Below are positions 5,403 through 53,128 of a stretch of 64,000 bases of DNA, piece by piece. The position numbers were made by a program, and so were the translations under genes. The notes under the pieces are model-generated. The model made no database searches. It had not been told where the DNA came from and was given only the letters and a program-made list of their open reading frames with translations. How positions within the stretch are numbered: the first letter of the stretch is position 1; each line of letters opens with the position of its first letter. The DNA is taken from the NCBI GenBank assembly GCA_000002445.1, contig CP000069.1, forward strand, positions 992,001-1,056,000. Reading direction: 5' to 3'. Source of the stretch: Trypanosoma brucei (taxonomy: Eukaryota).

Positions 5403-7775
5403 TTGACGAGTTCTGCAGAAAAATTGGTAGAGAAGAATGTCAACACCCTGGAACAGAAATTGAGCTCCGCCATCCGCATTGCGACGAAGGTCTCCGTTCC
5501 CCGTGGCTGCAGAGCAACGCCACCACATTGGACACCTGCGCTCGCGAAACTCGATGAAGAGATCGCTGGATACGGACCCTCTCACCGAAGGGAAAAGTTG
5601 GTAGCCACGCGTAAGCAGATCCTGGACCGCACCACAAAGAAGAGATGGAGCACGCTATGCTCCAGACTTGCGGTGTCAGACCGCTGCAGTTGGCACATTG
5701 TCAAGAAAGTATACGCGCCACGACCACTAACCACACCGGCTGTACTTGTTGATAACGCGGCCATCACGGACTACCGTCAAGCTGAGAGGTTCAGTAAACT
5801 GTACTCATCCCGCGCAAGAAGGCACCCCGACTCACACCCACCGGCACACATAAAGACGATAGCGAGTGAGTTTAGTCTCATCACGATAGCTGAACTACGG
5901 AGATCGATCAAACTGCTACCGAGTGGATCCATAGCCGGACCTGATTGCTTATACAACGAGGCACTGCAACATCTCGGTAGAGCAGCGCTGAATGTTGTGC
6001 TGAGGCTATTCAATGAGAGCCTACGAATGGGAGCCGTGCCGTCTGCATGGAAGACCGGTGTTATCATCCCCATCCTGAAGGCCAGAAAAAAGGAAGAGTA
6101 CCCCGAATCTTACAGGCCTGTGACGCTCACGAGCTGTCTCTGCAAAGTCATGGAGCGCATAATTGCCGCAAGGTTTAGAGACACTGTTGAGTCCCAGCTG
6201 ACGCCGCAGCAATCAGGCTTTCGCCCCGGATGCTCACCGCTCGAACAACTCCTGCACGTCTGCGCTGCCCTCTGCCGTCCCACGCACCAATATCGTACAG
6301 GTGCTGTATTCGTTGACTACGAGAAGGCATTTGACACAGTAGACCACGACAAAATTGCGGGGGAAATGCACAGAATGAAGGTATCACCCCACATTGTGAA
6401 GTGGTGCGTATCATTTCTGAGTAACCGAACTGGTAGAGTGAGATTCAAGGAGAAGCTTTCCAGAAGCAGAACATTTGAGCGAGGAGTGCCACAAGGAACT
6501 GTCCTTGGCCCAATCATGTTCATTATTGTCATGAACTCGTTGAGCCAACGCCTTGCAGAAGTGCCGTTGCTGCAGCACGGATTCTTTGCAGACGACCTGA
6601 CGCTACTTGCGAGACACACAGAGAGGGATGTCATCAACCAGACGCTACAATGCGGCCTAAACGTGGTGTTACAGTGGTCAAAAGAGTACTTCATGTCTAT
6701 CAATGTAGCGAAAACAAAGTTCACACTCTTCGGGTGTATAGGGCGCCACCCCCTTACATTGCAACTGGACGGCGAAAGGATAGGAGCTGACAGGACACCG
6801 AAGCTTTTAGGAGTAACATTCCAGTGTCTGCAAGGGATGGCAACACATGCGACCGAAACGAGACGCAAGATGGACTTCCGACTACTGCAGATAACAGTCA
6901 TCTCAGCTTCTATATGGGGGCCAATACGACAAGTGCTGAGAGCTTTTTATCTAGCACTCGTACAGGCACGCACCATGTGTGGCATTGAGGTATGGTACTG
7001 GGACGCTTCGGAACGAAGTCGCGACCTCCTTGCAGCAGCACAACACAAAGCCAGTCGAATCATAGCTGGCATACCGCATGGGACGCGCAAAGAGGACTCT
7101 CTGCTGGAAGCAAACCTCCTGCCACTCAAGACGACCACTCTTGTGCGCAGCATGAAATTCATGCTGATGTGTGAGTCACGAGGCGGATGTTTGCGGCGCA
7201 GTGCTGAGGAAGTATACCACAGCAAACATCCAGTCAGAGCCCTACATTCCCGCATCATGCGGTCCTACCCCCACCTCCGCATTGAGCCACGCGAGCACCC
7301 ACTAGAGACATCGACGCTCCGCCACAGCTGCCGACCGATATTTCACACGCAGATAAAGCCTGTGTGCGCTGATGACCCTGACGATGTCAAAAGGGAGGCT
7401 CCCGAAAAGTGGATTGAACGGCATTTTGCACGGAGGGGGAAGGAGCCACCGCGACGAGAGCACTACGAATTGTGGACTGATGGATCCGTGCCCCTCGGTG
7501 AGAAGTCCGGATCAACTGCCCTGCTCTATAGAAACAACACGCTGATTTGTGCACCCAAGACCGGAGCAGGGGAACTCTCATGCAGTTACAGAGCGGAATG
7601 CGTAACATTAGAGATAGGACTGCAACGGCTGCTGAAATGGCTTCCGGCATACAGAAGCACATCGAGCAGGTTGTCCATCTTCTCTGACTCGCTGTCAATG
7701 TTAACAGCACTGCAGACAGGCCCCCTAGCCGTAACGGACCCAATTCTGAGACGACTATGGAGGCTTCTGCTTTAA
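5403..7775 (+). pseudogene. Reverse-transcriptase ORF fragment of ingi copy 1.
   Basis: A 790-aa ORF with RT domain motifs (SGFRPGCS, VFVDYEKAFDTV, FFADD). It is interrupted by frameshifts before the RNase H segment. The track start codon is TTG, not ATG. Confidence 0.8.
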
Positions 7776-7790
7776 GTTCAGAGAAGGAAG

Positions 7791-8234
7791 GTGCGTATCC
7801 GACTGCAATTTGCGTCCGGCCATTGTGGCGTGAAACGGAATGAGGTTTTCGATGAAATGGCCAAAAAGGCCGCTGATTTACCACAGTTGCGAGACGCATG
7901 GATCCCCGACATCATTGCTTATGCGAAGCGAGTGCTTAGGTCGGAAGAAGTCCATGAGAACACTCATAGGTTTGGTATCACCTGCAACCACTTTCCAACA
8001 AAACATAAAGAAGAACTGACGAGGGAAGAGGAAACGGCACTGGCACGCTTTCGGGTTGGAGTCTTCAAGATACTATGGATGGATGTTGCGAAAGATCAAC
8101 CCGAGTGTGCCTCCACAGTGCCGATGGTGCAACCCGCAACATGCAGCAATAGGGCCAACAATACAAACAGTCCCAACTGTTGCGACACGCACTCTTCAGA
8201 GAACCTCCGAACCAACCAAATGTACGGAATGTGA
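7791..8234 (+). pseudogene. RNase H segment of ingi copy 1 (frameshifted).
   Basis: Motif LQFASGHCGVKRNEVFDEMAKKAA. Confidence 0.7.
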
Positions 8235-9519
8235 TGCCACATACCAATACCTGTCGAATGCTGTAACGCACATGGTAAACAAACATGGCTTTGTGCGAGC
8301 TGATGCCCTCCGGAGGATCAAATACGGCGATGCAACACCCGCAGTGGACATCCTCCCGGAGACCCCTCCAGTGGTGGCGATCGTTTCTTTACCATCGAGC
8401 ATACGAGTCCTGATGAGACCGCAGGTGCTTTACTGTACCCTCTGTGCCTCCAAATTCGCAGTGCCAGGCCGACTATTACACCATCTTAGAACAATACATG
8501 GCATAGGCAGCGGTAGTTGCCGCGTGAAAAGGGGGCGAGAGAGCGAGGACTCAGTGCAAGGAGATGGTAGCGTCCCAGCAGCCCCAGCCCCTCAGGAAAC
8601 ACGGAAGCTGCCGTTTCAATGTGACCTGTGCGAGGCGAGCTTCAGTACACGTTCTTCCCTGTCACTACACAAGAAATTCAAGCATAAGAGCATAGTGACG
8701 GAGGACGGTACCGTGGTGGTGTTGCAATTCCCTCGTAAGCGTGCTCGTGAGGGAAACGTTGACGTGCCGGGGAAAGGCGAGGTGCAGTGTGGTGTGTGTC
8801 CAAAAGTGCTCAGTTGCAGTGACTCCCTCATCCGACACTGTAAGGCTTTCCACAAAGGTGAGGGAGTCGAGCTTAAATGCAGCAAAAGCACAAAATTGCG
8901 TGCCACTGATTCCCCGCATACAAATGCATCCATGTTGGTGCGCCCGACATGCGGAAGGCAGTGTGCTAGCAAAACTGGCCTCACCCTACATCAAAAGAAG
9001 ATGCACGGTATGAAGGTAGAGCGCGCTGTTACCAGCCAACGCGGCGACTGCGAAGAAACGTCGCTGCACCTGATGAGCTGTCCCGGTTTGAAGGAGTTAC
9101 GTGTCAGGTTTGCGGTAGAAGGTGAGTGTGTGCAGGATATATGTTTTTCCAAAAGGCTGGCGCAATTTCTCATTGCGGTTGAACGGAGCCGGCCGCAGGT
9201 GAAGTCCTCACCTAATGTAACAGTCATACAACCCACTCTCCCTTCTGCAACTTCCCAGCTTATTGCTGAGAGTGGAGCTAGCAGGAAAAGCACCGGACGC
9301 AGGAATAGTCCAGACACCCTCAGAGAGGGGGTATGCAGTCAACAAGCAACAGAAACAGAAAGAGGGGGAGAGAATAATAAACAAAGAACAAAATTCAAAA
9401 CAAAAGGATTGCTAATTGACATTTTTGTGAGAGTCCGGGGTGGGAGGCTTCTCGCCCCATCTGCTGTATTCCGTTTAACTGCGGAACTACAACAAAACGT
9501 TATAGAGAGGGTGTGTTAG
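8056..9519 (+). pseudogene. C-terminal C2H2-like zinc-finger segment of ingi copy 1.
   Basis: Multiple C-x2-C...H-x3-5-H units (CTLCASKFAVPGRLLHHLRTIHG, CDLCEASF...HKKFKHK, CGVCPKVLSCSDSLIRHCKAFHKG). Confidence 0.7.
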
Positions 9520-9568: not shown

Positions 9569-10750
9569 TCAGGGCTCTACGGTGATGGCTGATGGCCGTG
9601 CCAGTGGGGGGAAACTCTCACGAAGGCACGAAGAAAATTCCAAAAAAAAAAAAATAGAGAAGCATATATCCTGCACACACTCACCTTCTACCGCAAACCT
9701 GACACGTAACTCCTTCAAACCGGGACAGCTCATCAAGTGCAGCGACGTTTCTTCGCAGTCGCCGCGTTGGCTGGTAACAGCGCGCTCTACCTTCATACCT
9801 TGCATCTTCTTTTGATGTAGGGTGAGGCCAGTTTTGCTAGCACACTGCCTTCCGCATGTCGGGCACACCAACATGGATGTGTTTGTATGCGGGGAATCAG
9901 TGGCACACAATTTTGTGTTTTTGCTGCATTTAAGCTCGACTCCCTCACCTTTGTGGAAAGCCTTACAGTGTCGGATGAGGGAGTCCCTGCAACTGAGCAC
10001 TTTTTGGCACACACCACACTGCACCTCGCCCTTCCCCGGGACGTCAACGTTTCCCTCACGGGCACGCTTACGAGGGAATTGCACCAACACCACGGTACCG
10101 TCCTCCGTCACTATGCTCTTATGCTTGAATTTCTTGTGTAGTGACAGGGAAGAACGTGTACTGAAGCTCGCCTCGCACAGGTCACATTGAAACGGCAGCT
10201 TCCGTGTTTCCTGAGGGGCTGGGGCTGCTGGGACGCTACCATCTCCTTGCACTGAGTCTTCGTTCTCTCTCCAACTTTTCACGCGGCAACTACCGCTACC
10301 TATGCCATGTATCGTTTGAAGGTGGTGTAATAGTCGGCCTGGCACTGCGAATTTGGAGGCACAGAGGGTACAGTAAAGCACCTGCGGTCTCATCAGGACT
10401 CGTATGCTCGATGGTAAAGAAACGATCGCCACCACTGGAGGGGGCTCCGGGAGGATGTCCACTGCGGGTGTTGCATCGCCGTATTTTATCTTTCGAAGGG
10501 CATCAGCTCGCACAAAGCCATGTTTGTTTACCATGTGCGTTACAGCATTCGACAGGTATTGGTATGTGGCATCACATTCCGTACATTTGGTTGGTTCGGA
10601 GGTTCTCTGAAGAGTGCGTGTCGCAACAGTTGGGACTGTTTGTATTGTTGGCCCTATTGCTGCATGTTGCGGGTTGCACCATCGGCACTGTGGAGGCACA
10701 CTCGGGTTGATCTTTCGCAACATCCATCCATAGTATCTTGAAGACTCCAA
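9569..10750 (-). pseudogene. C-terminal C2H2-like segment of ingi copy 2 (3'-truncated).
   Basis: 393 aa, near-identical to 8056-9519 up to the truncation point. Confidence 0.7.
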
Positions 10751-11015
10751 CCCGAAAGCGTGCCAGTGCCGTTTCCTCTTCCCTCGTCAGTTCTTCTTTA
10801 TGTTTTGTTGGAAAGTGGTTGCACGTGATACCAAACCTATGAGTGTTCTCATGGACTTCTTCCGACCTAAGCACTCGCTTCGCATAAGCAATGATGTCGG
10901 GGATCCATGCGTCTCGCAACTGTGGTAAATCAGCGGCCTTTTTGGCCATTTCATCGAAAACCTCATTCCGTTTCACGCCACAATGGCCGGACGCAAATTG
11001 CAGTCGGATACGCAC
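10572..11015 (-). pseudogene. RNase H segment of ingi copy 2.
   Basis: 147 aa, identical to the copy-1 segment. Confidence 0.7.
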
Positions 11016-11030
11016 CTTCCTTCTCTGAAC

Positions 11031-13346
11031 TTAAAGCAGAAGCCTCCATAGTCGTCTCAGAATTGGGTCCGTTACGGCTAGGGGGCCTGTCTGCAGTGCT
11101 GTTAACATTGACAGCGAGTCAGAGAAGATGGACAACCTGCTCGATGTGCTTCTGTATGCCGGAAGCCATTTCAGCAGCCGTTGCAGTCCTATCTCTAATG
11201 TTACGCATTCCGCTCTGTAACTGCATGAGAGTTCCCCTGCTCCGGTCTTGGGTGCACAAATCAGCGTGTTGTTTCTATAGAGCAGGGCAGTTGATCCGGA
11301 CTTCTCACCGAGGGGCACGGATCCATCAGTCCACAATTCGTAGTGCTCTCGTCGCGGTGGCTCCTTCCCCCTCCGTGCAAAATGCCGTTCAATCCACTTT
11401 TCGGGAGCCTCCCTTTTGACATCGTCAGGGTCATCAGCGCACACAGGCTTTATCTGCGTGTGAAATATCGGTCGGCAGCTGTGGCGGAGCGTCGATGTCT
11501 CTAGTGGGTGCTCGCGTGGCTCAATGCGGAGGTGGGGGTAGGACCGCATGATGCGGGAATGTAGGGCTCTGACTGGATGTTTGCTGTGGTATACTTCCTC
11601 AGCACTGCGCCGCAAACATCCGCCTCGTGACTCACACATCAGCATGAATTTCATGCTGCGCACAAGAGTGGTCGTCTTGAGTGGCAGGAGGTTTGCTTCC
11701 AGCAGAGAGTCCTCTTTGCGCGTCCCATGCGGTATGCCAGCTATGATTCGACTGGCTTTGTGTTGTGCTGCTGCAAGGAGGTCGCGACTTCGTTCCGAAG
11801 CGTCCCAGTACCATACCTCAATGCCACACATGGTGCGTGCCTGTACGAGTGCTAGATAAAAAGCTCTCAGCACTTGTCGTATTGGCCCCCATATAGAAGC
11901 TGAGATGACTGTTATCTGCAGTAGTCGGAAGTCCATCTTGCGTCTCGTTTCGGTCGCATGTGTTGCCATCCCTTGCAGACACTGGAATGTTACTCCTAGA
12001 AGCTTCGGTGTCCTGTCAGCTCCTATCCTTTCGCCGTCCAGTTGCAATGTAAGGGGGTGGCGCCCTATACACCCGAAGAGTGTGAACTTTGTTTTCGCTA
12101 CATTGATAGACATGAAGTACTCTTTTGACCACTGTAACACCACGTTTAGGCCGCATTGTAGCGTCTGGTTGATGACATCCCTCTCTGTGTGTCTCGCAAG
12201 TAGCGTCAGGTCGTCTGCAAAGAATCCGTGCTGCAGCAACGGCACTTCTGCAAGGCGTTGGCTCAACGAGTTCATGACAATAATGAACATGATTGGGCCA
12301 AGGACAGTTCCTTGTGGCACTCCTCGCTCAAATGTTCTGCTTCTGGAAAGCTTCTCCTTGAATCTCACTCTACCAGTTCGGTTACTCAGAAATGATACGC
12401 ACCACTTCACAATGTGGGGTGATACCTTCATTCTGTGCATTTCCCCCGCAATTTTGTCGTGGTCTACTGTGTCAAATGCCTTCTCGTAGTCAACGAATAC
12501 AGCACCTGTACGATATTGGTGCGTGGGACGGCAGAGGGCAGCGCAGACGTGCAGGAGTTGTTCGAGCGGTGAGCATCCGGGGCGAAAGCCTGATTGCTGC
12601 GGCGTCAGCTGGGACTCAACAGTGTCTCTAAACCTTGCGGCAATTATGCGCTCCATGACTTTGCAGAGACAGCTCGTGAGCGTCACAGGCCTGTAAGAAT
12701 CGAGGTACTCTTCCTTTTTTCTGGCCTTCAGGATGGGGATGATAACACCGGTCTTCCATGCAGACGGCACGGCTCCCATTCGTAGGCTCTCATTGAATAG
12801 CCTCAGCACAACATTCAGCGCTGCTCTACCGAGATGTTGCAGTGCCTCGTTGTATAAGCAATCAGGTCCGGCTATGGATCCACTCGGTAGCAGTTTGATC
12901 GATCTCCGTAGTTCAGCTATCGTGATGAGACTAAACTCACTCGCTATCGTCTTTATGTGTGCCGGTGGGTGTGAGTCGGGGTGCCTTCTTGCGCGGGATG
13001 AGTACAGTTTACTGAACCTCTCAGCTTGACGGTAGTCCGTGATGGCCGCGTTATCAACAAGTACAGCCGGTGTGGTTAGTGGTCGTGGCGCGTATACTTT
13101 CTTGACAATGTGCCAACTGCAGCGGTCTGACACCGCAAGTCTGGAGCATAGCGTGCTCCATCTCTTCTTTGTGGTGCGGTCCAGGATCTGCTTACGCGTG
13201 GCTACCAACTTTTCCCTTCGGTGAGAGGGTCCGTATCCAGCGATCTCTTCATCGAGTTTCGCGAGCGCAGGTGTCCAATGTGGTGGCGTTGCTCTGCAGC
13301 CACGGGGAACGGAGACCTTCGTCGCAATGCGGATGGCGGAGCTCAA
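11031..13346 (-). pseudogene. Reverse-transcriptase ORF fragment of ingi copy 2.
   Basis: A 771-aa ORF nearly identical to 5403-7775 (for example EYLDSYRPV versus EYPESYRPV). Confidence 0.8.
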
Positions 13347-15452
13347 TTTCTGTTTCAGGGTGTTGACATTCTTCTCTCTACCAATTTTCCTGCAGAGCTC
13401 GTCAACCTTGAGACGGAAATTCCTCCAGTCAGCTTTTAGCTATGCGTGCATGGGTTTTCAAAGCCGCGGGCAGCTCAGTGAGTCTGTGTCGTCTCCAACA
13501 ATAACGTCGAAAAATATGTGATGGTGGTCGGTATCGGGAGAATACAGCGATGTCCACCTGGACACTGTGAAATTCCTTGATAGCGTCATATCAGGGGTGG
13601 GCTCCACGTGGTGGCGCGCGTACCTGGTGCACTCACCAGTGTTACATACCAGAAGCTGGTTGGAACTTAAATTTAACGTTCATTGAACGGTTAAGGACTC
13701 TTGTGTGTGCGGCAACGGGCGCCAGCTTATTTACCCACTCTTGCTCTTGGGTACGTTAGCAGGACCTAATTTTCCCCGCCAGTGCTCCACAAACAAATTA
13801 TGTTGGGTCAGTGGGCGGTCACCCATACCACTGCGTATTATTGAAGCGTGCTCTGTGGGGTTGAAACGATTCGGTTCGCTGGTGGATGGATTTTCGGGTA
13901 AGTCCCGATGCACATGTGAGGCTCGCGGCCAGTGGCGTGGCTTCTGTTAAGCGTAGCGATTACGTCTTGATTCCGTTTTTCTTAGTTTGGACGGTGTGGT
14001 GGCACATGCGGAGGCGGTGTTGGTTAACAGTCGCTGATAGCACCAACTGCGCATGTCCTGTTGTATGTTTCGCTTCCAGTCCCTCAAATGGCAGGGGCTT
14101 GGTAATTGACAAGGTGGTCCGCGGAAAAGCATGTGAAGATCTGAAAGTGTGTCTTGAATCCCTGTAGATATGGAGGTGGTGGCATCAATGCGACGACTTC
14201 CCCACTTCATCTTAATATATATGTATTAGCTTGAAGGAACGCATGGGAACACGCAAAGGCACGGTGATTGCAGGCCAGCTGTGCTGAAAGATGGGATGGA
14301 AATGAGAGTACCACAAACGTGAGGGTGTACTGCTCTTCTTTCCGCACGAAGCGTTTGTGTAGTAAATGTGAGGTATGGCAGGCGGCGCGTGCAGAAACGC
14401 AGTGTACGGAAAGCGACTCCCATCATTACGGGGAAATTTCCAAGGAGAACGACAACGGAATACACGTCAGCGGTGCGTCGCGCTTCCCGACGCATTCCAA
14501 ACATCGTCTCAGGGAGTTTGAGATGTCAAGCTTCTCATATGGGAATGTGGAGAAAGAAAAGAAGCCCACGTCGTCTTATGACTGGAAATACTGGAAGCCC
14601 TTTGCTAATCCTCTCAAACGATGCCCGGCGCAAAAGATGAGACACATAATATAGGTGACGGTGACTGTGGTGTAACTCTTGCCGACGGACTCGAAGCTGG
14701 CGAAGCTCCTTCGGGAAGAAATCAATATCATTGCGAAAACCTTCGAAACCGGTGGCGGCGGGTGCTCATTCACCCCCCTTCCCCCCTGGGTTCTTGTCCT
14801 CGTCGACCTTCATTTCGCACCGCATGCGTTGAGGGCCGTTCTGTTGCCGCCATCTGGTTGATGTTGATGAAGTTCTTCTTCTTTAGCCCTTTTATTTCCG
14901 ACGAAGGTGTCGCACACACGTGGGAAAACGCAGAGTGCGTTTGTGCGTATGGGGACTGAGACGCTCAAATCACTAAATATGCAACACGCTGACGTACTGG
15001 GGGTGAAAATAAAACGATGGAAAGAAGAAAGTTACCAACTTTTCAGAAATAAGCAAGCAAGTCACAAAAAGTTTATGCTTACACATTCGTGGTAGCCTGT
15101 GGTTCAGCGGTATCAACATTGTGGTAAACAATGGTTCAGTTGTTGTTCAAATATACACATTTGCTCACACAAAAATGAGCTCATTTTTTTTTTTTTTGAA
15201 ACATTTGATAATGGTATCATTTGGAAATTGGCGATGTAGATGTTTCGATATTAAATTACAGGGTATAATGACATCCAGTGATCGCCAACTCCGGTATTCT
15301 GATTTGACAGAGGGGCATTTCCTTTCCCCCAACCTTTTAGCATCGCTTTCCATGCCCGAATTTGTAAAAAAAAAAAAAAGAAATAACCGATTTTCACTCT
15401 ATTTGTCACATCTCCAGAGTAAAAGGTTTCCTTTCAACTGTGTCTGTGTGTG

Positions 15453-16863: not shown

Positions 16864-17913
16864 TCAAACTTGCGTCAGCAGGACATCCTTGCAATAGTCC
16901 ACCTCAAAATCCTCGAGGTCCTGTAGGTTTAGCGTTAACGTCCACAACCCGTGTGCCTTTACGCTCCGCCCCTCGCTCACTGGTGCATTGGCTACACTAA
17001 GGGGATCCATGCATTTCGTAACGGCCCACTTACGCTCCAGGGACAATTCTTCTCGAAGCGATTCCTGCATGAGATTCACAATTATGCGCCCTACGGGAAC
17101 CACTTCCCATGTGTGGTCCACCTGTTTACGCCTTATCTTACAGACACGCTTCAGTGCGTCCGCCTCTTGCACCGCCCATGCCGCTAAATGTATGTGCCGT
17201 GGTCCTTCACACGTTCCAAACAGCATATAGTCAAAGTTGCTCGTTTTATTACTAACATCGATAGCGCAGATGTCCCGGACCTTAAGTGACCGCAAAACTT
17301 CTAGTATCTCCTTTACATCTTCTATATATGCCTTCCGCCCGTCCTGCCAAGTTTCGTCGAGGGATCCCTCAACTTCCATTTCCAACAACATGTCTGCAAA
17401 CCGCTCGTCATCGTATGGAAGTGGCTGTTTCGATCCCGTGCTTGTGGGTTGCTGAATCGTCTCCTCCAGAGTGTCACTAGCCAAAACGCGGAGGGCGCTG
17501 CGACTGTTCGTCCGCTGTTCCTCCTGGCGACTGGAAATTGGAATGTTAAGCCGGGAAAATACCTGACCCTCTGGAATATCGTTTTCCCTGACGACGCCGA
17601 GTTCTGAAGAATCCCCCACTTCTCGCCGCGCACTGGCTGATCCCAGCGCATTTGTAAGATCATCCAGTTGGAGATCAACAAAATCGCTCTCCCCGCCATT
17701 GGAGAGCGGCAGCGGCGGCGGAGTCCCATCATTCGTGAACGCATCACTTGAATGCCAGCGGGCAGCTTTCAGCGGCAGGTGACAACACAACCGATTTCGC
17801 ATCCTTCCACTTTCGCGAATCAACTCAAAACAGCACCAACGAAACGAAGGCGTAGTTTGAAATACACCACGCGCATAGCAGCCAGGTGTTGATTTGCTAA
17901 AAATTCGCCGCAT
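16864..17913 (-). CDS. MALSU1 / RsfS (iojap, DUF143)-like ribosomal silencing factor with an N-terminal mitochondrial-targeting-like sequence.
   Basis: ATG confirmed. The core DICAIDVSNKTSNFDYMLFGTCEGPRHIHLAAWAVQEADALK matches the iojap/RsfS signature (DxxxLDVxxxxxxxDYFVIxTGxSxRHxxAIA). The N-terminus is Arg-rich with no acidic residues. Confidence 0.55.
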   Translation of the reverse strand: MRRIFSKSTPGCYARGVFQTTPSFRWCCFELIRESGRMRNRLCCHLPLKAARWHSSDAFTNDGTPPPLPLSNGGESDFVDLQLDDLTNALGSASARREVGDSSELGVVRENDIPEGQVFSRLNIPISSRQEEQRTNSRSALRVLASDTLEETIQQPTSTGSKQPLPYDDERFADMLLEMEVEGSLDETWQDGRKAYIEDVKEILEVLRSLKVRDICAIDVSNKTSNFDYMLFGTCEGPRHIHLAAWAVQEADALKRVCKIRRKQVDHTWEVVPVGRIIVNLMQESLREELSLERKWAVTKCMDPLSVANAPVSEGRSVKAHGLWTLTLNLQDLEDFEVDYCKDVLLTQV

Positions 17914-19460: not shown

Positions 19461-22001
19461 TCATACCTCACGGTTTTCAATCCAGTGAACGGAGCAACTC
19501 TCCTCGATGTCCTTCGCACCTTTTTTGTTTCCACGCAAGTCATTTTGCAGGTAAGTGCCACCACCGCCTTTGCACACCCAAACGCCCTCGTAGCGATTCC
19601 CATGAATTTTATTTCGCATCACATGTGGGCGACTGTTAGAGGTAACAATAATACCCGCACTGTAATTATTCAGCACTTCATTCTCTTCAATGACACCGGC
19701 ACCTTCCTGAAACACATAAATACCTGCTTCTCTTCCTTGCCGAATAATATTTCTTGACACATTTGGCGAGGCCCGCTCTTTAATGAGAATCCCGGCTCGG
19801 TTGTTCCTCCGAATTTCATTTTCGACAATAATAGGGGCAGCTTCGGCACAACAAAAGACACCTGCCTTTTGGTTGGCTGTGATGTGATTCCGTTTGAGGA
19901 CAGCATTTGCACAGGGACCCTTCGCCACCACACCGAAACTGCCATTGTTTGCTATGTGGTTCTCTTCTACCGTACCATGTGCGTTATGTAAAAAAATTCC
20001 CGTAACTCCGCCATCCACCACATCGTTTCTTTTGACACATGCAGTGCTATCCTTTTTAAGCAAGAATCCGGCCAGTTTGCAGTTCTTCACCGTATTCTTT
20101 TCAAAGAGACCATGGGCCCCTTCGAGAACAACAACACCTGCGGTTTTGGTATCACATATATGGCAGTGGGAAACAATGGCATCTACGTCACTGTTTACTG
20201 TGATGCCACTCCCATTTGAGCTTGAAATCCGGCAGCGGGATATTTTCCACTCACCCCCAACGAGAGATATGGCTCCAAAATGGGAATCCTCTTTATCATT
20301 TGCCTCAGCAGGCTCCACTGCGTATTCCTTCTTTGTCTGTCGAGCGATGTGACGAATGACGAAATTTTCTATAGTGCCCCTACCAGCTATGCAGTGTATA
20401 GCGAAGGGCCCATCACTTACTTCAACAATGGGTAGGGGATCTTCACCGATAATGCTCAAGCTGTCTGGTAAATCAGCTCCCAACACAAGTGGATCCGTGA
20501 ACACAGCTGCTTCTTTGACCACAATATTACGTACATGAGATAGTCCTTTAACAGCCTGCAGCGCGGTTTGTAGCGTTGGGTAGTCCCTGGGGACACGAAT
20601 TGTTGTATCTTTTATGTTCCGGCCCGCACCGCGAGCGAAAAAGTCAAACAAAGGTGTTACAATGTGAGGACTTGGGCTGAGACCGCTCCTATCACCACAA
20701 GATATGCGTCTCGGAGTCAGAAAACGTGATGAAGTGCTGCTTGCGCTCGATGCCCGCCACTTCACCAGTCGCATCGCCGAGCCGCTCTCATCTCTGAGCC
20801 AGTGAGTACGAGTACTTCGACCGCTACACGTGACACTGTAAGGTGTACGCTCGAGGCTGCTGCAGCTCCGCCGGCTTCGACTTGCCTTTTCAGAATCTTT
20901 TTTGCACGACTGCACGCCGTTAAAGTTTGTGGGACTTGCCATGTGCTCTGTGTCACATCCATTGCTCAACAACGCTGCGAGACTCGAGGGTGTTGCACAT
21001 CTAGGGGCGCTCGGTGTCGTGATACCATTGGATTGCACCACCGCACTTAACATGGCGTCCAAACGACACGAAATGTCTTCGAGAGAGGGCCGATCATCAG
21101 GCGATCGATATAACATATCACGCAGAAGTTCTCCCAGATGTCCGGAGAAACCCATGTCCGTTACTTGCTTCACAACCTTTTCCACAATTGAAGGATTTTC
21201 AATCACACGACTGTTTATGGGCTGCTCCTGCAAGGTGGTAAGCTCTAACATCACCACACCTAATCCCCAAACGTCTACCTTTCCATCGTACTCCTCCTGG
21301 AGCATATGTTCCGGAGCGATGTAGAGCGGTGTGCCTACAACTTTCTCTTGCGACATCCCAACCGCCACGGCCAAGCCAAAGTCACCAATCTTCACATTTC
21401 TACCCTCGTCTAGGAAAATATTTGTGGGTTTCAAATCTCTATGCAGAAACCCTTTCCTGTGAATGAATTTAAGTGCCAGAACACACTGCTTCATCCACAA
21501 AACCACACGTCTTTCCGAAATGGGGTGAAATCCAGTTGCGACAAAGCTTCTCTTCGATTTACTTATAACCACTCCCAAATCCCCGTAAGTGCATAATTCC
21601 ATAACGAGACAAACGCATATCTCATTTGGACCAATTTCCACCGCATCCTTGCCGTCTCCGCAGCTGTTATTCGTAACTACCCCAACTGCATCGACAGGCA
21701 TGTCCTCACTATATCCCTGTGAGTCGGTTGAAATAGTCGTCTTTTTGGTAGGGAATTCGAACAGCAAGCGGCGAACTTCATTTGCGTCAGACACAAGAAA
21801 AAAATCCTTGTACGACACGATGTGTGGGTAGCGTAGTTGTAGCAGTACCTTGATTTCCTTTAGCGCTGCGTTAACAGACGAAATGTCGTGGCATCGAATT
21901 ACTTTCATAGCGAATTTCCGCCCAGTTCGGACGTGAATAACACTAAGCACAGAACCCTGTGCGCCACTACCAATTGGACGGTAAATAGTGTAATCCTCCA
22001 T
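19461..22001 (-). CDS. Serine/threonine protein kinase with a C-terminal parallel beta-helix (PbH1/CASH) repeat domain (846 aa).
   Basis: ATG confirmed. The kinase domain shows GSGAQGSV, AMKVI, HRDLKPTNIFL, DFGLAV and YIAPE. The C-terminal ~350 aa contain about 10 tandem ~23-aa repeats (N.I..N...GI.V type), typical of right-handed beta-helix proteins. Confidence 0.75.
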   Translation of the reverse strand: MEDYTIYRPIGSGAQGSVLSVIHVRTGRKFAMKVIRCHDISSVNAALKEIKVLLQLRYPHIVSYKDFFLVSDANEVRRLLFEFPTKKTTISTDSQGYSEDMPVDAVGVVTNNSCGDGKDAVEIGPNEICVCLVMELCTYGDLGVVISKSKRSFVATGFHPISERRVVLWMKQCVLALKFIHRKGFLHRDLKPTNIFLDEGRNVKIGDFGLAVAVGMSQEKVVGTPLYIAPEHMLQEEYDGKVDVWGLGVVMLELTTLQEQPINSRVIENPSIVEKVVKQVTDMGFSGHLGELLRDMLYRSPDDRPSLEDISCRLDAMLSAVVQSNGITTPSAPRCATPSSLAALLSNGCDTEHMASPTNFNGVQSCKKDSEKASRSRRSCSSLERTPYSVTCSGRSTRTHWLRDESGSAMRLVKWRASSASSTSSRFLTPRRISCGDRSGLSPSPHIVTPLFDFFARGAGRNIKDTTIRVPRDYPTLQTALQAVKGLSHVRNIVVKEAAVFTDPLVLGADLPDSLSIIGEDPLPIVEVSDGPFAIHCIAGRGTIENFVIRHIARQTKKEYAVEPAEANDKEDSHFGAISLVGGEWKISRCRISSSNGSGITVNSDVDAIVSHCHICDTKTAGVVVLEGAHGLFEKNTVKNCKLAGFLLKKDSTACVKRNDVVDGGVTGIFLHNAHGTVEENHIANNGSFGVVAKGPCANAVLKRNHITANQKAGVFCCAEAAPIIVENEIRRNNRAGILIKERASPNVSRNIIRQGREAGIYVFQEGAGVIEENEVLNNYSAGIIVTSNSRPHVMRNKIHGNRYEGVWVCKGGGGTYLQNDLRGNKKGAKDIEESCSVHWIENREV

Positions 22002-22416: not shown

Positions 22417-23478
22417 CTACGCAAAGCTATGCGTCTGTGCTTTACCCAGGGTTCCACGTAATGATCGATAGCACGCCATACCGTGCAACCAACATGCAAC
22501 GGATGGGGGTGTTACTTTACCGCCTAAACAGTCTTTGATGAACAGTTCAGCTCCCTCACAATCAACGATATCATCCAAGTGCACAACTACCAGAGAATGC
22601 GGAACCGACTCAAATGCATCAAAACCAACACGACTGTCGAAGCGCGCCTGCACTTCGGCAGCGGTTTGGTTCACCTCCACCCAAAAACAAGCATCAGGTT
22701 TCATATTCTTCATGTTCTCCACAATACTGAGTAGACCTCTGTTACGGCATGCGGTGCGTTCAACACCAAGCTCATCAGCTACCTCCATCACAGCACTGTC
22801 AAATAAATGCTGAACAATCACTTCAGGGTTCACGCCACTTAGTTGCGACACCGCCTCCTCCCGTCTAAGCCTATCATTTAACAAATCACTATTTTGCACA
22901 CTATTGTGATTATGGTCAATATTATTATGGTTCCCCGTAGCAGGCCCACTTAACGGTAGTTGGCAAAGGATGTCTTGTGGCTCTGGGTGGCCACCAGGGA
23001 AGCAATAATAGCCGGGATATTCACTCACTAGCGACGAGCGACAAAACATCACAGCCTTTTCGTCGGAGGTCGTTGTAAAACACTCAATTCCGAGTGCACG
23101 AGCGAGGTATTTCCGCCTATCTGTGCCGCCGTCACTGGTAGAACGTAAAAAATAGTCGACATTCGTAGCTACTCCCATACTGGATTTATAATCTGTTATT
23201 CCAAGTTGCAAATGGCACTTACCATTATCATACTGGACAACGTTATGAAGCCGGAATTTCAATCCGTTGTGCAGTATTTTCCTTTCCAACCCCTTCATCA
23301 ACTTCCTCCACGTCTCCTCAATGATGCTATGCTCCTCTGCGAGGCCTTCCAGCCGACCAAATGAGTCATCTACCGTAACTTCCACTCTGGAAGGAGGATA
23401 CGGGTCTCCAGCACAATCTGCCGATGCGTTAAAAGCGAGGAAGATAGTTTCAAACCCGTAAATTGCACTCTTACTCAT
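22417..23478 (-). CDS. Nudix-like (NUDT22-like) hydrolase, tentative (353 aa).
   Basis: ATG confirmed. A segment CFPGGHPEPQD...RLRREEAV resembles a non-canonical Nudix box (PGGxxEP). The rest has no recognisable motif. Confidence 0.35.
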   Translation of the reverse strand: MSKSAIYGFETIFLAFNASADCAGDPYPPSRVEVTVDDSFGRLEGLAEEHSIIEETWRKLMKGLERKILHNGLKFRLHNVVQYDNGKCHLQLGITDYKSSMGVATNVDYFLRSTSDGGTDRRKYLARALGIECFTTTSDEKAVMFCRSSLVSEYPGYYCFPGGHPEPQDILCQLPLSGPATGNHNNIDHNHNSVQNSDLLNDRLRREEAVSQLSGVNPEVIVQHLFDSAVMEVADELGVERTACRNRGLLSIVENMKNMKPDACFWVEVNQTAAEVQARFDSRVGFDAFESVPHSLVVVHLDDIVDCEGAELFIKDCLGGKVTPPSVACWLHGMACYRSLRGTLGKAQTHSFA

Positions 23479-23910: not shown

Positions 23911-26352
23911 TTACCGTTGCCCCATCAACTGGACTCCACCATTTGATGTTCCAATGGCGAGCACATTTTCTATGGGGTGCCAACAGATGGCTGTCGCCGT
24001 ATCGGTGACTGGCAGTTTGTCCAAAACCGCACCAGAACCTACATCATAAATAAAGACATTACGAGTTTCGCTTCCAACGGCTACGAGGGCACCGGTTGGC
24101 GAAAACGCAACCCCGACGGCTGTCGCATTGCTGCGGTGCTGAGCGAGCTGACGAACAGAGCGCTTTTGCCTAATATCCCACAAACGCACTGTACTATCCA
24201 TTCCCGCTGTAAGACACATGTGGAGGTGATTGCTTCCGATAGAGGCGTAACGGCCAGCTGTCAGCAACGCCACGCTGTGTATGGGTCGCGTGTGTGCTTC
24301 CTCTATCACGTTAATGTTTTGCCCAACATGTAAGTCATACACGCCGAATGACTTGTTTGACGCTGCCCACACCACAACATTGGAGGCGAAGTGATTGATA
24401 GCGTCGACCCCGACCACGTGCTGCGCCGAGGGTACTGTAAACTCGAGTGCGGGCTTCATCTTTGATTCATTCCGCTTCCTATCCAAATCCCCTCCACCAT
24501 CATCCAAACAATAACGACAGAAATTTACGCTGTTTGCAGTGGCATAGCATATAAACTTGTCCGTGTAAACAAATTTAACTGCTCGCACGTCCCTCCCCAC
24601 CTTCTGTACGATATAAGGCGAAGCGCGCTTTGTAGGCCGCCACACGGCCACTACACCATCGCATGAGCCTGTGACCACAACAGGTGCGTTAAGAGACATA
24701 TTAGCATCTATAGAGCTCAGGGGTGCAGTATGTACCCGTAATGCCGTTCCGTCGCCCTCATTCTTTGCCACCGGCATCTTCAGCATAAAAGCCGATGCGT
24801 CACCAGATGCAGTTACCAGTGCAGAGCCACTGGCGGTAAATTTAGCCGATGTTATGACAGCACGGTGAATGGGAGAAGAAAGAAGAAATCTATTAGCGGC
24901 TGTCATCGGCTGAAGAGGTCGGTTGGACAGTGGCAAAAATTTGTATCGTGGAACGGCAACGGCTGTGGACGGATGCTTGGGTGCCCTTGTAGCCCTTTCA
25001 CGCAACTTCTTCTGCCGCTGTTGCACACTCCACGGGACACTGGCGGTGTAACCGCTACTTTTGATAGGGCGTCCAAACGTCACCGGTTTATCCGTAGGCA
25101 TCTTTTTATCTCTTGCAACGCTCAATTTTCCGGTGTTCCGGGTGGAAGGGACCTTCTGCTGATTATGTTGGGGAGGTAATTGCAGGGGTTCCAGTAGATG
25201 CGGGGGCAATGGAAATCGTGCGTGCATGATGTCGCTGGAAGGATCAAAAGAATCATCACATCCATCTCCCAAAATACCATCCACGGCAGACAAGTACAAC
25301 AACTCTTGCGTGCCCGATACTAAGGCACACCATGAGCCATCTCTTGACGCCGCAGAAATCTGTGGAGTTTTCTCACCGAAAAATAACGTATTACTGTCTA
25401 ATAATTCCATCGAATTTTTGTTGTAGTAAACAACCGCATCTGTGCGCATTACTACCATTATCGACCGACCAACGACCACTTCCATCACACGGACCCCTCC
25501 ATAAAGGGATACATGCTCTGGTATATCGACATCCCGATATATCTGCTTCGTCACATCAAGGACGAAAAAAACCTGCAAATTATCCTGCTGAACCAACTTT
25601 ATTGTGCCGTCTGATAAACCAACAACAAGATGTCCTTCCTCACTACCTCCAACCGCAAAACATGTTACCTGTTGAGCTCGAGTTATAATATGACCATCCC
25701 TTTGGAGATAAGGTTCCACACTCCACCACTCTTCATTACAGTGGAGACTTACTAGATGATTTCCCCTTGAAATGGCAAACAAAATGCTGCCGCCAAAGGC
25801 AGCGAATGCTGCACCGGCTTCACCGTACCAACAACTGCAGTCCAGAAGCAACAGGGTAGGTGCCACACCATCCGCAAGATTGTACCGTAATCGGCAATCT
25901 ACCAAAGTAATTCCACAAGGAGAACACACAGCTATGGTAGTGCCGTCGGTAGACCACACAACATGGGTGGCACCAGGTGGAACACCATTACAAAGGAACT
26001 CTTCATTTAAGAGAAGCACTTCATCCGCGTCATCGTCATCATCATCTCCGTAATCATCGTTTCCGTGTCCGAAAGACAACGCAGAGCTCCACGTGAAGAG
26101 AGCTGCTGACGATTCTCCAATAACCGCAACTTTCTCTTGGAATACGGAAAGAAGGATGGGCACAAATCCCATTTCCACTAGCGGATGCATGTTGGGCTCC
26201 TCTTCTCCACATTCCCATGCGTACATGACTGCCGGCCCACTGCCGTTGCTTTGACTACACCACAGTAATCGTTGTGACGATAGAGCCATGCAGTTCACAA
26301 TTCCCCCATTTATCTGGATAGCGCGAGGCGTAGCTCCCGTTTCCTTATACAT
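23911..26352 (-). CDS. WD40-repeat protein (813 aa).
   Basis: ATG confirmed. WD-like units are present, for example STVRLWDIRQKRSVRQL, VFIYDVGSG, GTIKLVQQD and VVAVWRP. There is an acidic D-rich stretch. Confidence 0.6.
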   Translation of the reverse strand: MYKETGATPRAIQINGGIVNCMALSSQRLLWCSQSNGSGPAVMYAWECGEEEPNMHPLVEMGFVPILLSVFQEKVAVIGESSAALFTWSSALSFGHGNDDYGDDDDDDADEVLLLNEEFLCNGVPPGATHVVWSTDGTTIAVCSPCGITLVDCRLRYNLADGVAPTLLLLDCSCWYGEAGAAFAAFGGSILFAISRGNHLVSLHCNEEWWSVEPYLQRDGHIITRAQQVTCFAVGGSEEGHLVVGLSDGTIKLVQQDNLQVFFVLDVTKQIYRDVDIPEHVSLYGGVRVMEVVVGRSIMVVMRTDAVVYYNKNSMELLDSNTLFFGEKTPQISAASRDGSWCALVSGTQELLYLSAVDGILGDGCDDSFDPSSDIMHARFPLPPHLLEPLQLPPQHNQQKVPSTRNTGKLSVARDKKMPTDKPVTFGRPIKSSGYTASVPWSVQQRQKKLRERATRAPKHPSTAVAVPRYKFLPLSNRPLQPMTAANRFLLSSPIHRAVITSAKFTASGSALVTASGDASAFMLKMPVAKNEGDGTALRVHTAPLSSIDANMSLNAPVVVTGSCDGVVAVWRPTKRASPYIVQKVGRDVRAVKFVYTDKFICYATANSVNFCRYCLDDGGGDLDRKRNESKMKPALEFTVPSAQHVVGVDAINHFASNVVVWAASNKSFGVYDLHVGQNINVIEEAHTRPIHSVALLTAGRYASIGSNHLHMCLTAGMDSTVRLWDIRQKRSVRQLAQHRSNATAVGVAFSPTGALVAVGSETRNVFIYDVGSGAVLDKLPVTDTATAICWHPIENVLAIGTSNGGVQLMGQR

Positions 26353-35973: not shown

Positions 35974-37017
35974 TTACCAGGGTCCATATACAAGTGTTCG
36001 CTGTGGGGGAAGTGGCACGAGTGTTGTATCCACCGCAGGCACTAAAAGAGCAGTAGGTGGCGCATTGAATTTAGTCGGGTGCAAGTTAACAGCATTGGGA
36101 GTGAGAAAAACCTGTTGTCCATTGCCCAGCACAAGTACACCATTGGCAGCTGGACAATCTGCAGTTTGTAACGGCACAGTTGCAGCAGCCCCGTCATAAC
36201 TCATATCAACTGGCAACAGTGGCGGCATTGCTGTCACTGGTGAGGTTGAAAAATATAACGGTTGCGCCCGAGGTTCTACCTCCACCATCGGTGCCACCAT
36301 TTTCGTTTTCGTCACATGATGTGCAGCGGGGGAACATGATGGTGAAGTTTCCGTAGCGGATTGCGACACCTGAGTTTGATTTAAACTCACAACACCGGGC
36401 CGTGGAGGCGGGAACAGGCAAGCGCCCTTCAGCGCAGGTCCGGGTGCCAGTCGTCCCTCTTCACGCCGCCGTCGTCGCTCACGTTTCGCCTCGTCGGTAT
36501 CGGCATATTTAACCATGATGGGAGGGCCTCCGAAGTGGTTGGAGTTGCCGTGTAATTTATCCAGCACCCGTTGGGCGTTCTGAGGGGTGTCAAACTCAGC
36601 GTAAACAACCCAAACGGGATTGCCGTGATGATCTCCACGCATTGCGCAATACTCAAGAGGGGCGAGGTTTGAAAGGAAATTTTGCACCTCCCGTTCCCCC
36701 ATGGTGGTGGGGATATTTCGGATATAAACTGCCCGTGATGGTAACGTGACTGCTTTGCCGTTGTGTTGTGAAGGATAAATGAGGAGGTTGAAGCTGCTAT
36801 TGCAGACACGCACGAGTTTGCGGTTGAGACGTTCATAAGCCGTCCTCCCTTCCTCCTCCTTATCAAAAAGTACAAAACCAAATCCTTTGCTGTTGCCAGT
36901 GGAGGGGTCTAACATTATCTTAGCACCAAGTGGGTTGAAATTACTAAAAATTTGAAGCAAGTCACCGTCACAAAGGTGACGTGGTAACTTTGCTACGAAC
37001 AAATTACTGTACCACAT
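35974..37017 (-). CDS. RNA-binding protein with two RRM domains (347 aa) and a Pro/Thr/Val-rich C-terminus. It is a DRBD-type protein.
   Basis: ATG confirmed. RRM1 has RNP2 LFVAKL and RNP1 KGFGFVLF. RRM2 has RNP2 VYIRNI and a degenerate RNP1 NPVWVVYAEF. Confidence 0.75.
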   Translation of the reverse strand: MWYSNLFVAKLPRHLCDGDLLQIFSNFNPLGAKIMLDPSTGNSKGFGFVLFDKEEEGRTAYERLNRKLVRVCNSSFNLLIYPSQHNGKAVTLPSRAVYIRNIPTTMGEREVQNFLSNLAPLEYCAMRGDHHGNPVWVVYAEFDTPQNAQRVLDKLHGNSNHFGGPPIMVKYADTDEAKRERRRRREEGRLAPGPALKGACLFPPPRPGVVSLNQTQVSQSATETSPSCSPAAHHVTKTKMVAPMVEVEPRAQPLYFSTSPVTAMPPLLPVDMSYDGAAATVPLQTADCPAANGVLVLGNGQQVFLTPNAVNLHPTKFNAPPTALLVPAVDTTLVPLPPQRTLVYGPW

Positions 37018-52400: not shown

Positions 52401-53128
52401 CGACTCGTTTTGAATATGTGCGGACTCATCTCGGGAACGGCGTTTAGGGGAGGAAGACCAACAAACCGTTTGGAGAAGTCCGCAATATGCTCACGGATGA
52501 CCTTCGGGTTTGTAACTTCATAAAGGTGGGCTTTCATCAAGGGACCATAAAGTATTACGAGACTTGATGGGTTATCTTGAATGGAGGTGATCCCTCTTAT
52601 GTGCACGAAAAGATACTCACCAACAACGACCCCCTCCTCATTAATTTGTTCCACGGACACAGATGTAACGCGAAGTCGACAAGGCCTTTTTCTTTCATTA
52701 AAGCAGTATTTCTGGCAAACAAAAGAAAGTGAGTCTAGCTGGCTGCGGTACTTCATGTCGATGAGTGCACGGTACCGTTGAACATCCGTAAGTAACTCGG
52801 ATCGCTCCAAAGATGTGCTGCAGCTAAAGTTCATCACTTCCGACTTTCCTTTGCCAACGGTAGTTATAGCAAAATCTGTCTGGTTGTTTGGGTGAGGTGT
52901 GACGTCGATGAGTTGCGATCCGTAGTCCCACCTGTTTGTCACACGGAATATGCTCTGAGGATTTATTGTGGCAAGTTCCTTGCGACCAACGCAAAATATG
53001 CGCATGTATTTTCCCTTCCACGAACTCTTAATCACTGTGTGACGAGCAATGTAGTCATCCACTGGTTGACGCTCCCCCTCCTTGCCAGTTGGGACATCGG
53101 CCACGGACTCTGTTGGATGATTTTCCAT
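46418..53128 (-). CDS. RME-8 / DNAJC13 homologue (2236 aa): an endosomal J-domain protein with IWN repeats.
   Basis: ATG confirmed. A central J domain is present ([32 protein letters not shown]). Four IWN-type repeats are present ([60 protein letters not shown]). The size matches RME-8. Confidence 0.85.

Follow-up and report, generated by a model that had tools for sequence, protein, structure and literature searches.

A 64,000-nucleotide stretch of the Trypanosoma brucei genome (GenBank assembly GCA_000002445.1, contig CP000069.1, positions 992,001 to 1,056,000 of the forward strand), referred to here as the window, carries on its reverse strand a gene whose product joins an N-terminal NEK-like protein kinase domain to a C-terminal beta-helix of the type found in FBXO11 (F-box protein 11, also UBR6). 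The gene is Tb927.6.3430, to which the T. brucei kinome nomenclature gives the name TbNEK10. The reading that we favour, with modest confidence, is that of a cytosolic, catalytically intact NEK kinase whose FBXO11-type helix, carried on a flexible linker, serves at the basal body or flagellum to dock proteins or to target the kinase. According to this proposal, the rigid helix would keep the kinase bound to a partner or substrate at these structures, acting as the same module does in the SCF-FBXO11 substrate receptor, and the tethered kinase would phosphorylate targets nearby. In the ancestral euglenozoan protein, a B-box zinc finger sat between the kinase and the helix; its zinc ligands have been lost in African trypanosomes.

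The open reading frame (ORF) encodes 846 residues followed by a stop codon. It begins with ATG, its sole stop codon is the terminal one, and the start is backed by orthologs that open at the same Met (MEDYT/MEEYT). The locus is an already catalogued kinase gene, and the initial guess of a kinetoplastid source was correct. The protein is 100% identical to the T. brucei entries RHW71784.1 (T. brucei equiperdum), XP_845461.1 and Q584Y3, the TREU927 entry XP_845461.1/Q584Y3 being a member of the 90%-identity cluster of RHW71784.1. Additionally, the published RNA interference (RNAi) primers TLO5 and TLO6 for Tb927.6.3430 (Table S4 of PMC3894213) have exact matches in the window, at 21151-21170 (-) and 20706-20725 (+). 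The kinome-wide RNAi screen from which these primers come classed the gene as Other/NEK, "NEK10" (PMC3894213). The name TbNEK10 follows the trypanosome numbering and implies no orthology with human NEK10. Literature searches on the accession, the gene identifier and the domain combination retrieved no description of this kinase/beta-helix protein, and the one paper found for NEK10 together with T. brucei was set aside, as it concerns the mammalian NEK10.

The kinase domain was detected by Pfam Pkinase (PF00069, E=2.7e-48), the match being split into two stretches by a 36-residue insert in the N-lobe. The initial annotation had listed a Gly loop, a VAIK-type Lys, HRD, DFG and APE; all of these are present and conserved, namely GSGAQG (11-16), Lys33 within FAMK, HRD within HRDLKPTN (187-194), DFG (207-209) and APE (229-231), and they are accompanied by the alpha-C Glu49. 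The catalytic residues are invariant or nearly so across 37 orthologs. By its motifs, the kinase is therefore judged catalytically intact, and we infer that it is active; a literature search retrieved no published assay of its activity. In the search of PDB sequences, the best matches of the domain were NEK1 (1.9e-27) and NEK2 (1.7e-26), and the best database matches outside the orthologous group were annotated NEKs (NEK4, NEK6 and others). Published kinomes class the gene or its orthologs as Other/NEK (PMC1266030, PMC3894213, PMC7902614). Taken together, these matches support the assignment of the domain to the NEK family with moderate confidence. The N-lobe insert is predicted to be disordered in T. 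brucei by AlphaFold2 (AF2) and is absent in Bodo, the euglenids and the diplonemid. A scan of the protein for a signal peptide and transmembrane segments found none, and a membrane or receptor kinase was rejected, the most hydrophobic 19-residue window being the beta5 strand of the kinase.

The activation segment is distinctive in T. brucei. In 36 of the 37 orthologs, the residue three positions ahead of VGTP is Ser or Thr (Ser in T. congolense); in T. brucei the position is occupied by Lys220 (SQEK-VVGTP). This position is that of the activating phosphosite of NEKs (NEK2 T175, NEK6 S206, NEK7 S195 and NEK9 T210), and the PDB alignments are consistent with such a correspondence. The activating residue is thus present in the family overall and missing from the T. 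brucei protein. Because T. brucei has exchanged this conserved Ser/Thr for Lys, and given the loss of B-box ligands described below, the regulation of TbNEK10 probably differs from that of its orthologs.

The C-terminal repeats, previously proposed from the sequence to form a parallel beta-helix, are assigned to that fold by Pfam, by structure prediction and by fold comparison. Pfam Beta_helix (PF13229) matched with E=2.6e-35 (121.8 bits, against a cut-off of 25.9) and NosD (PF05048) with E=4.6e-23 (82.2 bits, cut-off 23.6). BLOSUM autocorrelation over residues 585-846 gave peaks at lags of 23, 46 and 69 residues (z=9.9, 11.1 and 7.8, respectively; 300 shuffles), and ten units of 22-24 residues stand in register at residues 590-819, followed by a cap. 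Within these units, the periodicity at 46 residues exceeds that at 23, and coils ending "P..V.RN" alternate with coils ending "G...EEN", which suggests a two-coil super-repeat. The AF2 model of residues 465-846, built on an alignment of 12 ortholog sequences, has a mean predicted local distance difference test score (pLDDT) of 92.5 and a predicted template modelling score (pTM) of 0.89. It contains about 14 coils and about 43 strands, three per turn, with one disordered loop. The earlier count of about ten repeats of about 23 residues therefore holds for the sequence-regular units, which are the last ten of the roughly 14 coils in the model. Similarly, the region placed at residues 500-846 does belong to the helix, but the helix starts near residue 462.

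Foldseek matched the modelled helix, with a probability of 1.00 and at 9-16% identity, to PDB structures of the alginate C5-epimerases AlgG and AlgE4, of phage tailspikes, of GH87 glucanases and of polysaccharide lyases. When the helix profile was run against PDB sequences, only AlgG/AlgE were recovered (AlgG at 4e-7), and no FBXO11 helix structure was among the matches. Most of the helix columns conserved among orthologs are the Gly, Asn, Ala and Cys positions that define the repeat. Conservation is strongest towards the C-terminus, in the last four or five coils and in the cap, and the densest run of invariant columns comprises the C-terminal cap (NDLRGN.KG..DIE) and the YEGVWVCK of the preceding coil. 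On this basis, the last coils and the cap are the most promising place for a functional surface. A strongly basic surface able to bind polyanions was also considered and found no support, the net charge of the helix being approximately zero (pI 6.1-8.7).

In the full-length AF2 model, built on 37 sequences (pLDDT 78.3, pTM 0.53), the kinase (residues 1-324) and the helix (462-846) are both confident. Residues 85-120 (the N-lobe insert), 211-221 (the activation loop), 325-461 (the linker) and 557-572 are disordered. As the pTM is only 0.53 and the linker has a pLDDT of about 30 while each domain is confident alone, the protein is predicted to consist of two domains that fold independently, are joined by a flexible tether and share no predicted interface.

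The linker had been described as Ser-rich, and so it is, with 19.7% Ser (8.6% in the whole protein), 11.7% Arg and predicted disorder; the remnant of a zinc finger inside it had, however, been missed. Between kinase and helix, most orthologs carry the type-1 B-box ligand pattern C-x2-C-x8-C-x2-C-x4-C-x2-C-x4-H-x7-H, complete with all eight ligands in 29 of 37 orthologs and present in two copies in Ploeotia. The gathering cut-off of Pfam zf-B_box was exceeded in T. theileri (27.3 bits), T. rangeli (27.4) and Ploeotia (33.1), and scores were weaker yet consistent in Leishmania, Bodo and the relative P0025. A scan with zf-B_box (PF00643/PF22586) gave no match in T. brucei, T. congolense or T. cruzi, which keep 2, 1 and 5 of the eight ligands, respectively. 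The T. brucei relic falls within the Ser-rich segment that AF2 predicts to be disordered. These alignments indicate that the African trypanosomes lost the zinc ligands, and that Euglena longa, Artemidia and two further relatives lost the B-box independently. The ancestral euglenozoan architecture was accordingly kinase, B-box zinc finger and beta-helix, and the B-box has been lost several times. In the 2005 TriTryp kinome, a "B-box Zn finger" was noted for a single L. major NEK but for no NEK of T. brucei or T. cruzi, and the beta-helix is missing from its table of accessory domains (PMC1266030).

All Trypanosoma and Leishmaniinae sampled share the colinear kinase/helix architecture, as do Bodo saltans, the euglenids Euglena longa and Ploeotia vitrea, and the diplonemid Artemidia motanka. 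The last three species provide complete transcript-derived ORFs of the fusion. Its occurrence in kinetoplastids, a diplonemid and euglenids indicates that the fusion is older than the radiation of the Euglenozoa. Among the orthologs, the African-trypanosome branch is the most diverged in both domains. Identity to Leishmania in the kinase is 0.50-0.55 for African trypanosomes and 0.63-0.65 for other trypanosomes, and in the helix it is 0.47-0.49 and 0.59-0.60, respectively; T. brucei and T. congolense share 66-68% identity in the folded domains. This faster divergence may be a genome-wide property of the branch rather than a gene-specific one.

The kinship of the helix with FBXO11 emerged from an exhaustive HMMER search, in which the helix profile was compared with 1.84 billion cluster representatives and 47,072 proteins were retrieved at E<=1e-3, with 2,106 at E<=1e-30. 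A word-indexed homology search with the helix alone and with its profile had returned the orthologs, a few bacterial beta-helix proteins and almost nothing else. The strongest non-orthologous matches of the HMMER search include proteins with F-box, Beta_helix and zf-UBR domains (P0159, P0164 and P0167, at about 1e-107 to 1e-109). BLASTP of the T. brucei helix against P0167 gave 27-33% identity over about 230-260 residues in five registers, with E-values down to 4e-32. At the sequence level, the label "FBXO11-type" given in the initial annotation is therefore apt. A Pfam scan of TbNEK10 found no F-box or F-box-like match at E<=1 and no zf-UBR match. We regard TbNEK10 as sharing the CASH module of FBXO11 and not as a member of the FBXO11 family, because it lacks the F-box and zf-UBR and has only the CASH repeats in common with it. 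In FBXO11, the CASH domains are right-handed beta-helices, modelled on AlgG structures 4OZZ and 4NK6 (PMC8825234), which also came out as the best templates for the TbNEK10 helix, and the CASH domain is described as "responsible for substrate recognition", the substrates being proteins (PMC13394945). FBXO11 is described as mainly nuclear (PMC13394945).

The same helix module was also identified behind other N-terminal domains, including TIR (P0132, P0139 and P0172), the caspase Peptidase_C14 (P0130, P0145 and P0175), an EDR1/CTR1-like peptidase domain (P0140), HSP70 with WD40 (P0155), and kinases. Such placement behind varied effector domains is the pattern expected of a binding or sensor module. 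One of the caspase/helix proteins additionally carries a bacterial SH3_3 domain, and the layout of effector and repeat sensor in the TIR, caspase, peptidase and HSP70/WD40 proteins resembles that of immune or conflict-system proteins. Among the top helix representatives that could be tested for a kinase, 36 of 143 carry one; seven or eight of these kinases are NEK10-like (E<1e-100 to 5e-55) and about 28 are distant. The kinase of P0131 is of the bacterial StkP/PknB type (best PDB matches StkP and PknB), and in the Pelomyxa protein P0040 the order is reversed, with the helix N-terminal to a TKL-like kinase. Because the bacterial PknB-type and Pelomyxa fusions are unrelated to that of NEK10, the combination of kinase and beta-helix has arisen several times, and it is not rare in sequence space. 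The architecture, initially called unusual, is so in that no paper describing it was found and the 2005 kinome table omits it, but it is shared across the Euglenozoa and, as a domain combination, by the 36 helix representatives just mentioned.

Evidence on location and phenotype comes from published screens. LmxM.29.2130 of L. mexicana is the ortholog of TbNEK10, with the same N-terminus and colinear domains and about 44% identity between TbNEK10 and the Leishmania proteins. The identification rests on the homology arm of its N-terminal tagging primer, which translates to MEEYNIKRKI, the N-terminus of the Leishmania orthologs. Basal-body or centriole association is typical of NEKs, and the localisation of the Leishmania ortholog matches it. 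For N-terminally tagged LmxM.29.2130, the basal body was recorded as the main location and the cytoplasm and flagellum as secondary ones (PMC7902614, supplements), and the kinase was classed as Other/NEK and "Dispensable" (Baker et al. 2021, PMC7902614). By analogy, the T. brucei protein would be expected to localise as its ortholog does, and the helix is presumably what targets the kinase. For Tb927.6.3430, the T. brucei screen recorded "No LOF" in RNAi target sequencing (RIT-seq) and Alamar Blue ratios of 0.99 and 0.95, corresponding to no loss of bloodstream-form fitness (PMC3894213). In barcode sequencing (bar-seq) of the L. mexicana null mutant, the proportions dropped approximately 2.6-fold in promastigote culture, from about 0.0042 (PRO 0 h) to about 0.0016 (PRO 168 h), and were low and variable in macrophages. 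These values, which are those of the raw tables without the authors' statistics, give a hint of a mild fitness cost.

Several observations weigh against the docking proposal. The basal-body signal in Leishmania derives from a single N-terminal tag in screen data, and an entry for Tb927.6.3430 was looked for in the TrypTag supplements and not found. RNAi and knockout gave no strong culture phenotype, so that function cannot be read from phenotype. The full-length AF2 model shows no confident interdomain contact, and it offers neither a docking geometry nor a partner. In the PDB search, ULK3, PAK and PLK were only about three orders of magnitude worse in E-value than NEK1 and NEK2, and the fold matches of the helix include many carbohydrate-active enzymes. 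Furthermore, the B-box decay, the loss of the activation-loop Ser/Thr and the divergence of the branch may be signs of relaxed constraint on the T. brucei protein, or of a way of working that differs from that of its orthologs.

The carbohydrate-active neighbours bear directly on what the helix might bind. The initial annotation had suggested a glycan- or polymer-binding role, and a helix that directs the kinase to a glycan or another non-protein polymer by binding it would agree with the closest solved folds being alginate epimerases, polysaccharide lyases, glycosidases and phage tailspikes, with the match of the profile to AlgG at the level of sequence, and with the naming of the CASH family for carbohydrate-binding proteins. 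We nevertheless consider this role unlikely. The protein has neither a signal peptide nor a transmembrane segment and lacks the DPHD catalytic motif of AlgG, its Leishmania ortholog resides at the basal body, cytoplasm and flagellum, and the CASH module of FBXO11, the closest relative of the helix to have been characterised, is described as reading protein substrates. On account of the kinship in architecture with FBXO11, together with the absence of the AlgG motif and of secretory or membrane signals, docking to a protein appears likelier than binding to a glycan, and by analogy we infer that the partner of the helix is a protein.

The flexible linker admits another arrangement, in which the helix, and ancestrally also the B-box, would be mainly a regulatory or oligomerisation element acting in autoinhibition or self-assembly and not in targeting. 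A linker of this length would let the helix bend back onto the kinase, C-terminal domains and dimerisation regulate many NEKs, and B-boxes often mediate self-association. The AF2 model, with its pTM of 0.53 and two individually confident domains, contains no such packed interface, and the presence of the same module behind TIR, caspase and F-box domains argues for a function independent of the kinase. We rate this arrangement as improbable, to much the same degree as glycan binding.

The docking proposal can also be carried further. As a decidedly speculative extension, to which we attach a still lower likelihood, the helix may be the kinase-borne counterpart of the FBXO11 receptor, a rigid "degron-reader"-type module recruited in the euglenozoan ancestor to deliver a NEK to specific basal-body or flagellar proteins. 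In its radical version, the module would read a non-protein polymer at the basal body, such as a glycan or the polyglutamate side chains of tubulin. If the extension were true, the CASH helix would amount to a general and portable module for recognition, put to use by ubiquitin ligases, kinases, TIR domains and caspases alike, and TbNEK10 and LmxM.29.2130 would provide a tractable, non-essential system for finding what the module recognises.

The losses seen in T. brucei could alternatively reflect a gene under relaxed constraint that is losing an ancestral function, a nearly vestigial kinase kept by drift. The lost B-box ligands, the replacement of the activation-loop Ser/Thr by Lys in T. brucei alone of the 37 orthologs, the position of the African trypanosomes as the most diverged branch in both domains, and the absence of a fitness phenotype in bloodstream RNAi or RIT-seq all point in this direction. 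Such decay is doubtful, however, given that the 846-codon ORF is intact, that no catalytic residue and none of the structural Gly, Asn and Cys positions of the helix has been lost, that the folded domains still share 66-68% identity with T. congolense, and that the rapid divergence may not be gene-specific.

Most solved structural neighbours of the helix are enzymes, and the helix could in principle itself be a lyase, epimerase or hydrolase. This is very unlikely: an AlgG-like enzyme was rejected on the absence of the DPHD motif, the residues that align with this motif are non-catalytic, every solved enzyme shares only 7-18% identity with the helix, and the conserved columns mostly define the repeat. 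To our knowledge, no catalytic activity has been reported for FBXO11-type helices. Finally, the chance that two adjacent genes were read as one through an annotation or assembly artefact is negligible and the idea was discarded, since nothing in its favour was found (the merged model P0143 joins NEK10 to its downstream RsfS neighbour and not the kinase to the helix), the ORF is uninterrupted by a stop or frameshift, and more than 35 species have the identical colinear architecture, several of them in complete transcript-derived ORFs that exclude a missed stop or gene merger; kinase and helix thus belong to a single gene, as first annotated.

The gene, its automatic Pfam domains in public databases, and the screen-level data on its ortholog are already known. 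The apparently new points are that an FBXO11-type helix, conserved across the Euglenozoa, is part of this NEK, that its ancestral B-box decayed in African trypanosomes, and that the T. brucei protein is devoid of the canonical activation-loop phosphosite. The novelty lies in this interpretation and not in the existence of the gene, and its practical value is modest but real. Recognition by CASH helices is poorly understood even for the disease gene FBXO11, and the T. brucei/L. mexicana ortholog pair, being non-essential, taggable and deletable, makes ligand-finding experiments easy to design. The combination of NEK, B-box and beta-helix represents an undescribed accessory-domain architecture for the expanded trypanosomatid NEK family, for which published kinome surveys list few accessory domains. 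Additionally, African trypanosomes, in losing the B-box and the activation-loop phosphosite, offer a natural experiment on kinase regulation. The gene is not a drug-target lead, because it is dispensable in culture in both species. The positions of all features within the window are collected in Table 1.

Table 1. Features of Tb927.6.3430 (TbNEK10) and of its product, with residue numbers (amino acids, aa) and positions in the window
Feature	Residues (aa)	Position	Strand	Basis
Complete coding sequence of Tb927.6.3430 (TbNEK10), 846 aa + stop	1-846	19461..22001	-	Single ORF; 100% identity; RNAi primer matches
Protein kinase domain, NEK-like	1-324	21030..22001	-	Pfam Pkinase; PDB matches NEK1, NEK2; AF2
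Gly-rich loop GSGAQG	11-16	21954..21971	-	G11, G13, G16 nearly invariant in orthologs
Catalytic Lys33 (FAMK)	33	21903..21905	-	Nearly invariant in orthologs
Disordered, lineage-variable N-lobe insert	85-120	21642..21749	-	pLDDT ~31-34; ortholog alignment
HRD catalytic-loop motif	187-189	21435..21443	-	Invariant in 37 orthologs
DFG motif	207-209	21375..21383	-	Invariant in orthologs
Lys220, three residues before VGTP	220	21342..21344	-	Ser/Thr in 36/37 orthologs; activation-segment alignment
APE motif	229-231	21309..21317	-	P230, E231 invariant in orthologs
Ser/Arg-rich disordered linker (~137 residues)	325-461	20619..21029	-	pLDDT ~30; composition
Relic of type-1 B-box zinc finger	346-383	20853..20966	-	Aligns with ortholog ligand pattern; 2/8 ligand positions Cys/His
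Right-handed parallel beta-helix (CASH/PbH1 type)	462-846	19464..20618	-	
Disordered loop inside helix	557-572	20286..20333	-	pLDDT <50; variable in orthologs
Ten sequence-regular coils of 22-24 residues	590-819	19545..20234	-	Register and periodicity
Conserved C-terminal cap NDLRGN.KG..DIE	820-846	19464..19544	-	Ortholog alignment

In the vicinity of NEK10, the next gene downstream (16864-17913, -) encodes a protein with an RsfS domain. The model P0143 (1549 residues) contains kinase, beta-helix and RsfS; it is probably a gene model that merges the two syntenic neighbours of another genome, and incidentally shows that the synteny is conserved. Directly upstream lies an ORF of 353 residues (22417-23478, -), for which a Pfam scan gave no match. 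An 813-residue WD40 protein (23911-26352, -) and a 2,236-residue ORF (46418-53128, -) are located on the same strand and in the same run as NEK10. Elsewhere in the window, a 3,721-nucleotide inverted repeat was observed at 5429-9149 and 9657-13377, its arms 99% complementary and separated by a 507-nucleotide spacer. Each arm contains a reverse-transcriptase ORF (RVT_1, E ~1e-43), and a C2H2 zinc-finger ORF was found in the one arm scanned; the structure looks like two ingi-like non-LTR (long terminal repeat) retroelements placed tail to tail. Between about 30000 and 46000, the GC content is 0.26-0.32, compared with about 0.47 in the flanking genes, and the only ORF of at least 200 residues (35974-37017, -) encodes a protein with two RRM stretches. 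A tandem-repeat scan of this AT-rich stretch found none scoring >=200, and its interpretation as a centromeric repeat array was rejected for that reason.

Compared with known systems, TbNEK10 resembles the canonical NEKs (NEK1, NEK2, NEK6, NEK7 and NEK9) in the N-terminal placement of its kinase domain and in its GTPLYIAPE motif (GTPYYLAPE in most orthologs), which recalls the GTPYYxSPE of that family. It differs from them in its accessory domains, with a beta-helix and ancestrally a B-box where canonical NEKs carry coiled-coil, RCC1, PH or armadillo domains, and in having Lys220 in place of an activating Ser/Thr, as well as in its 36-residue disordered N-lobe insert. The Leishmania proteins, unlike that of T. 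brucei, retain an intact eight-ligand B-box and the activation-loop Ser. Their kinase insert is much longer, and their helix contains an additional low-complexity insertion of about 60-75 residues; in the Leishmania and Leptomonas orthologs P0010, P0012, P0014 and P0023, the N-lobe insert is far longer than in Trypanosoma, and the helix insertion follows the GSGVTVG coil.

Among the proteins that share the fold, the AlgG/AlgE mannuronan C5-epimerases and NosD are the solved CASH-family helices. They are periplasmic or secreted, whereas TbNEK10 has no signal peptide and no DPHD motif, and their identity to its helix is only 14-17%. The bacterial PknB/StkP-like Hanks-type kinases represented by P0131 come closer in layout, with an N-terminal Ser/Thr kinase followed by a Beta_helix/NosD-type module that matches the NEK10 helix profile very strongly. 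In P0131, however, the kinase belongs to a different, bacterial class and the helix has several units, unlike that of TbNEK10; its fusion therefore arose independently of that in NEK10. With FBXO11, TbNEK10 shares the best solved template for the helix, AlgG, and a zinc-binding domain beside the helix, which is zf-UBR in FBXO11 and the ancestral B-box in the NEK10 family. FBXO11 contains three CASH domains with 19 PbH1 repeats (PMC8825234, PMC13394945), compared with a single helix unit of about 14 coils in TbNEK10. It is the substrate receptor of an SCF ubiquitin ligase, while the effector attached to the helix in TbNEK10 is a kinase and not an SCF adaptor.

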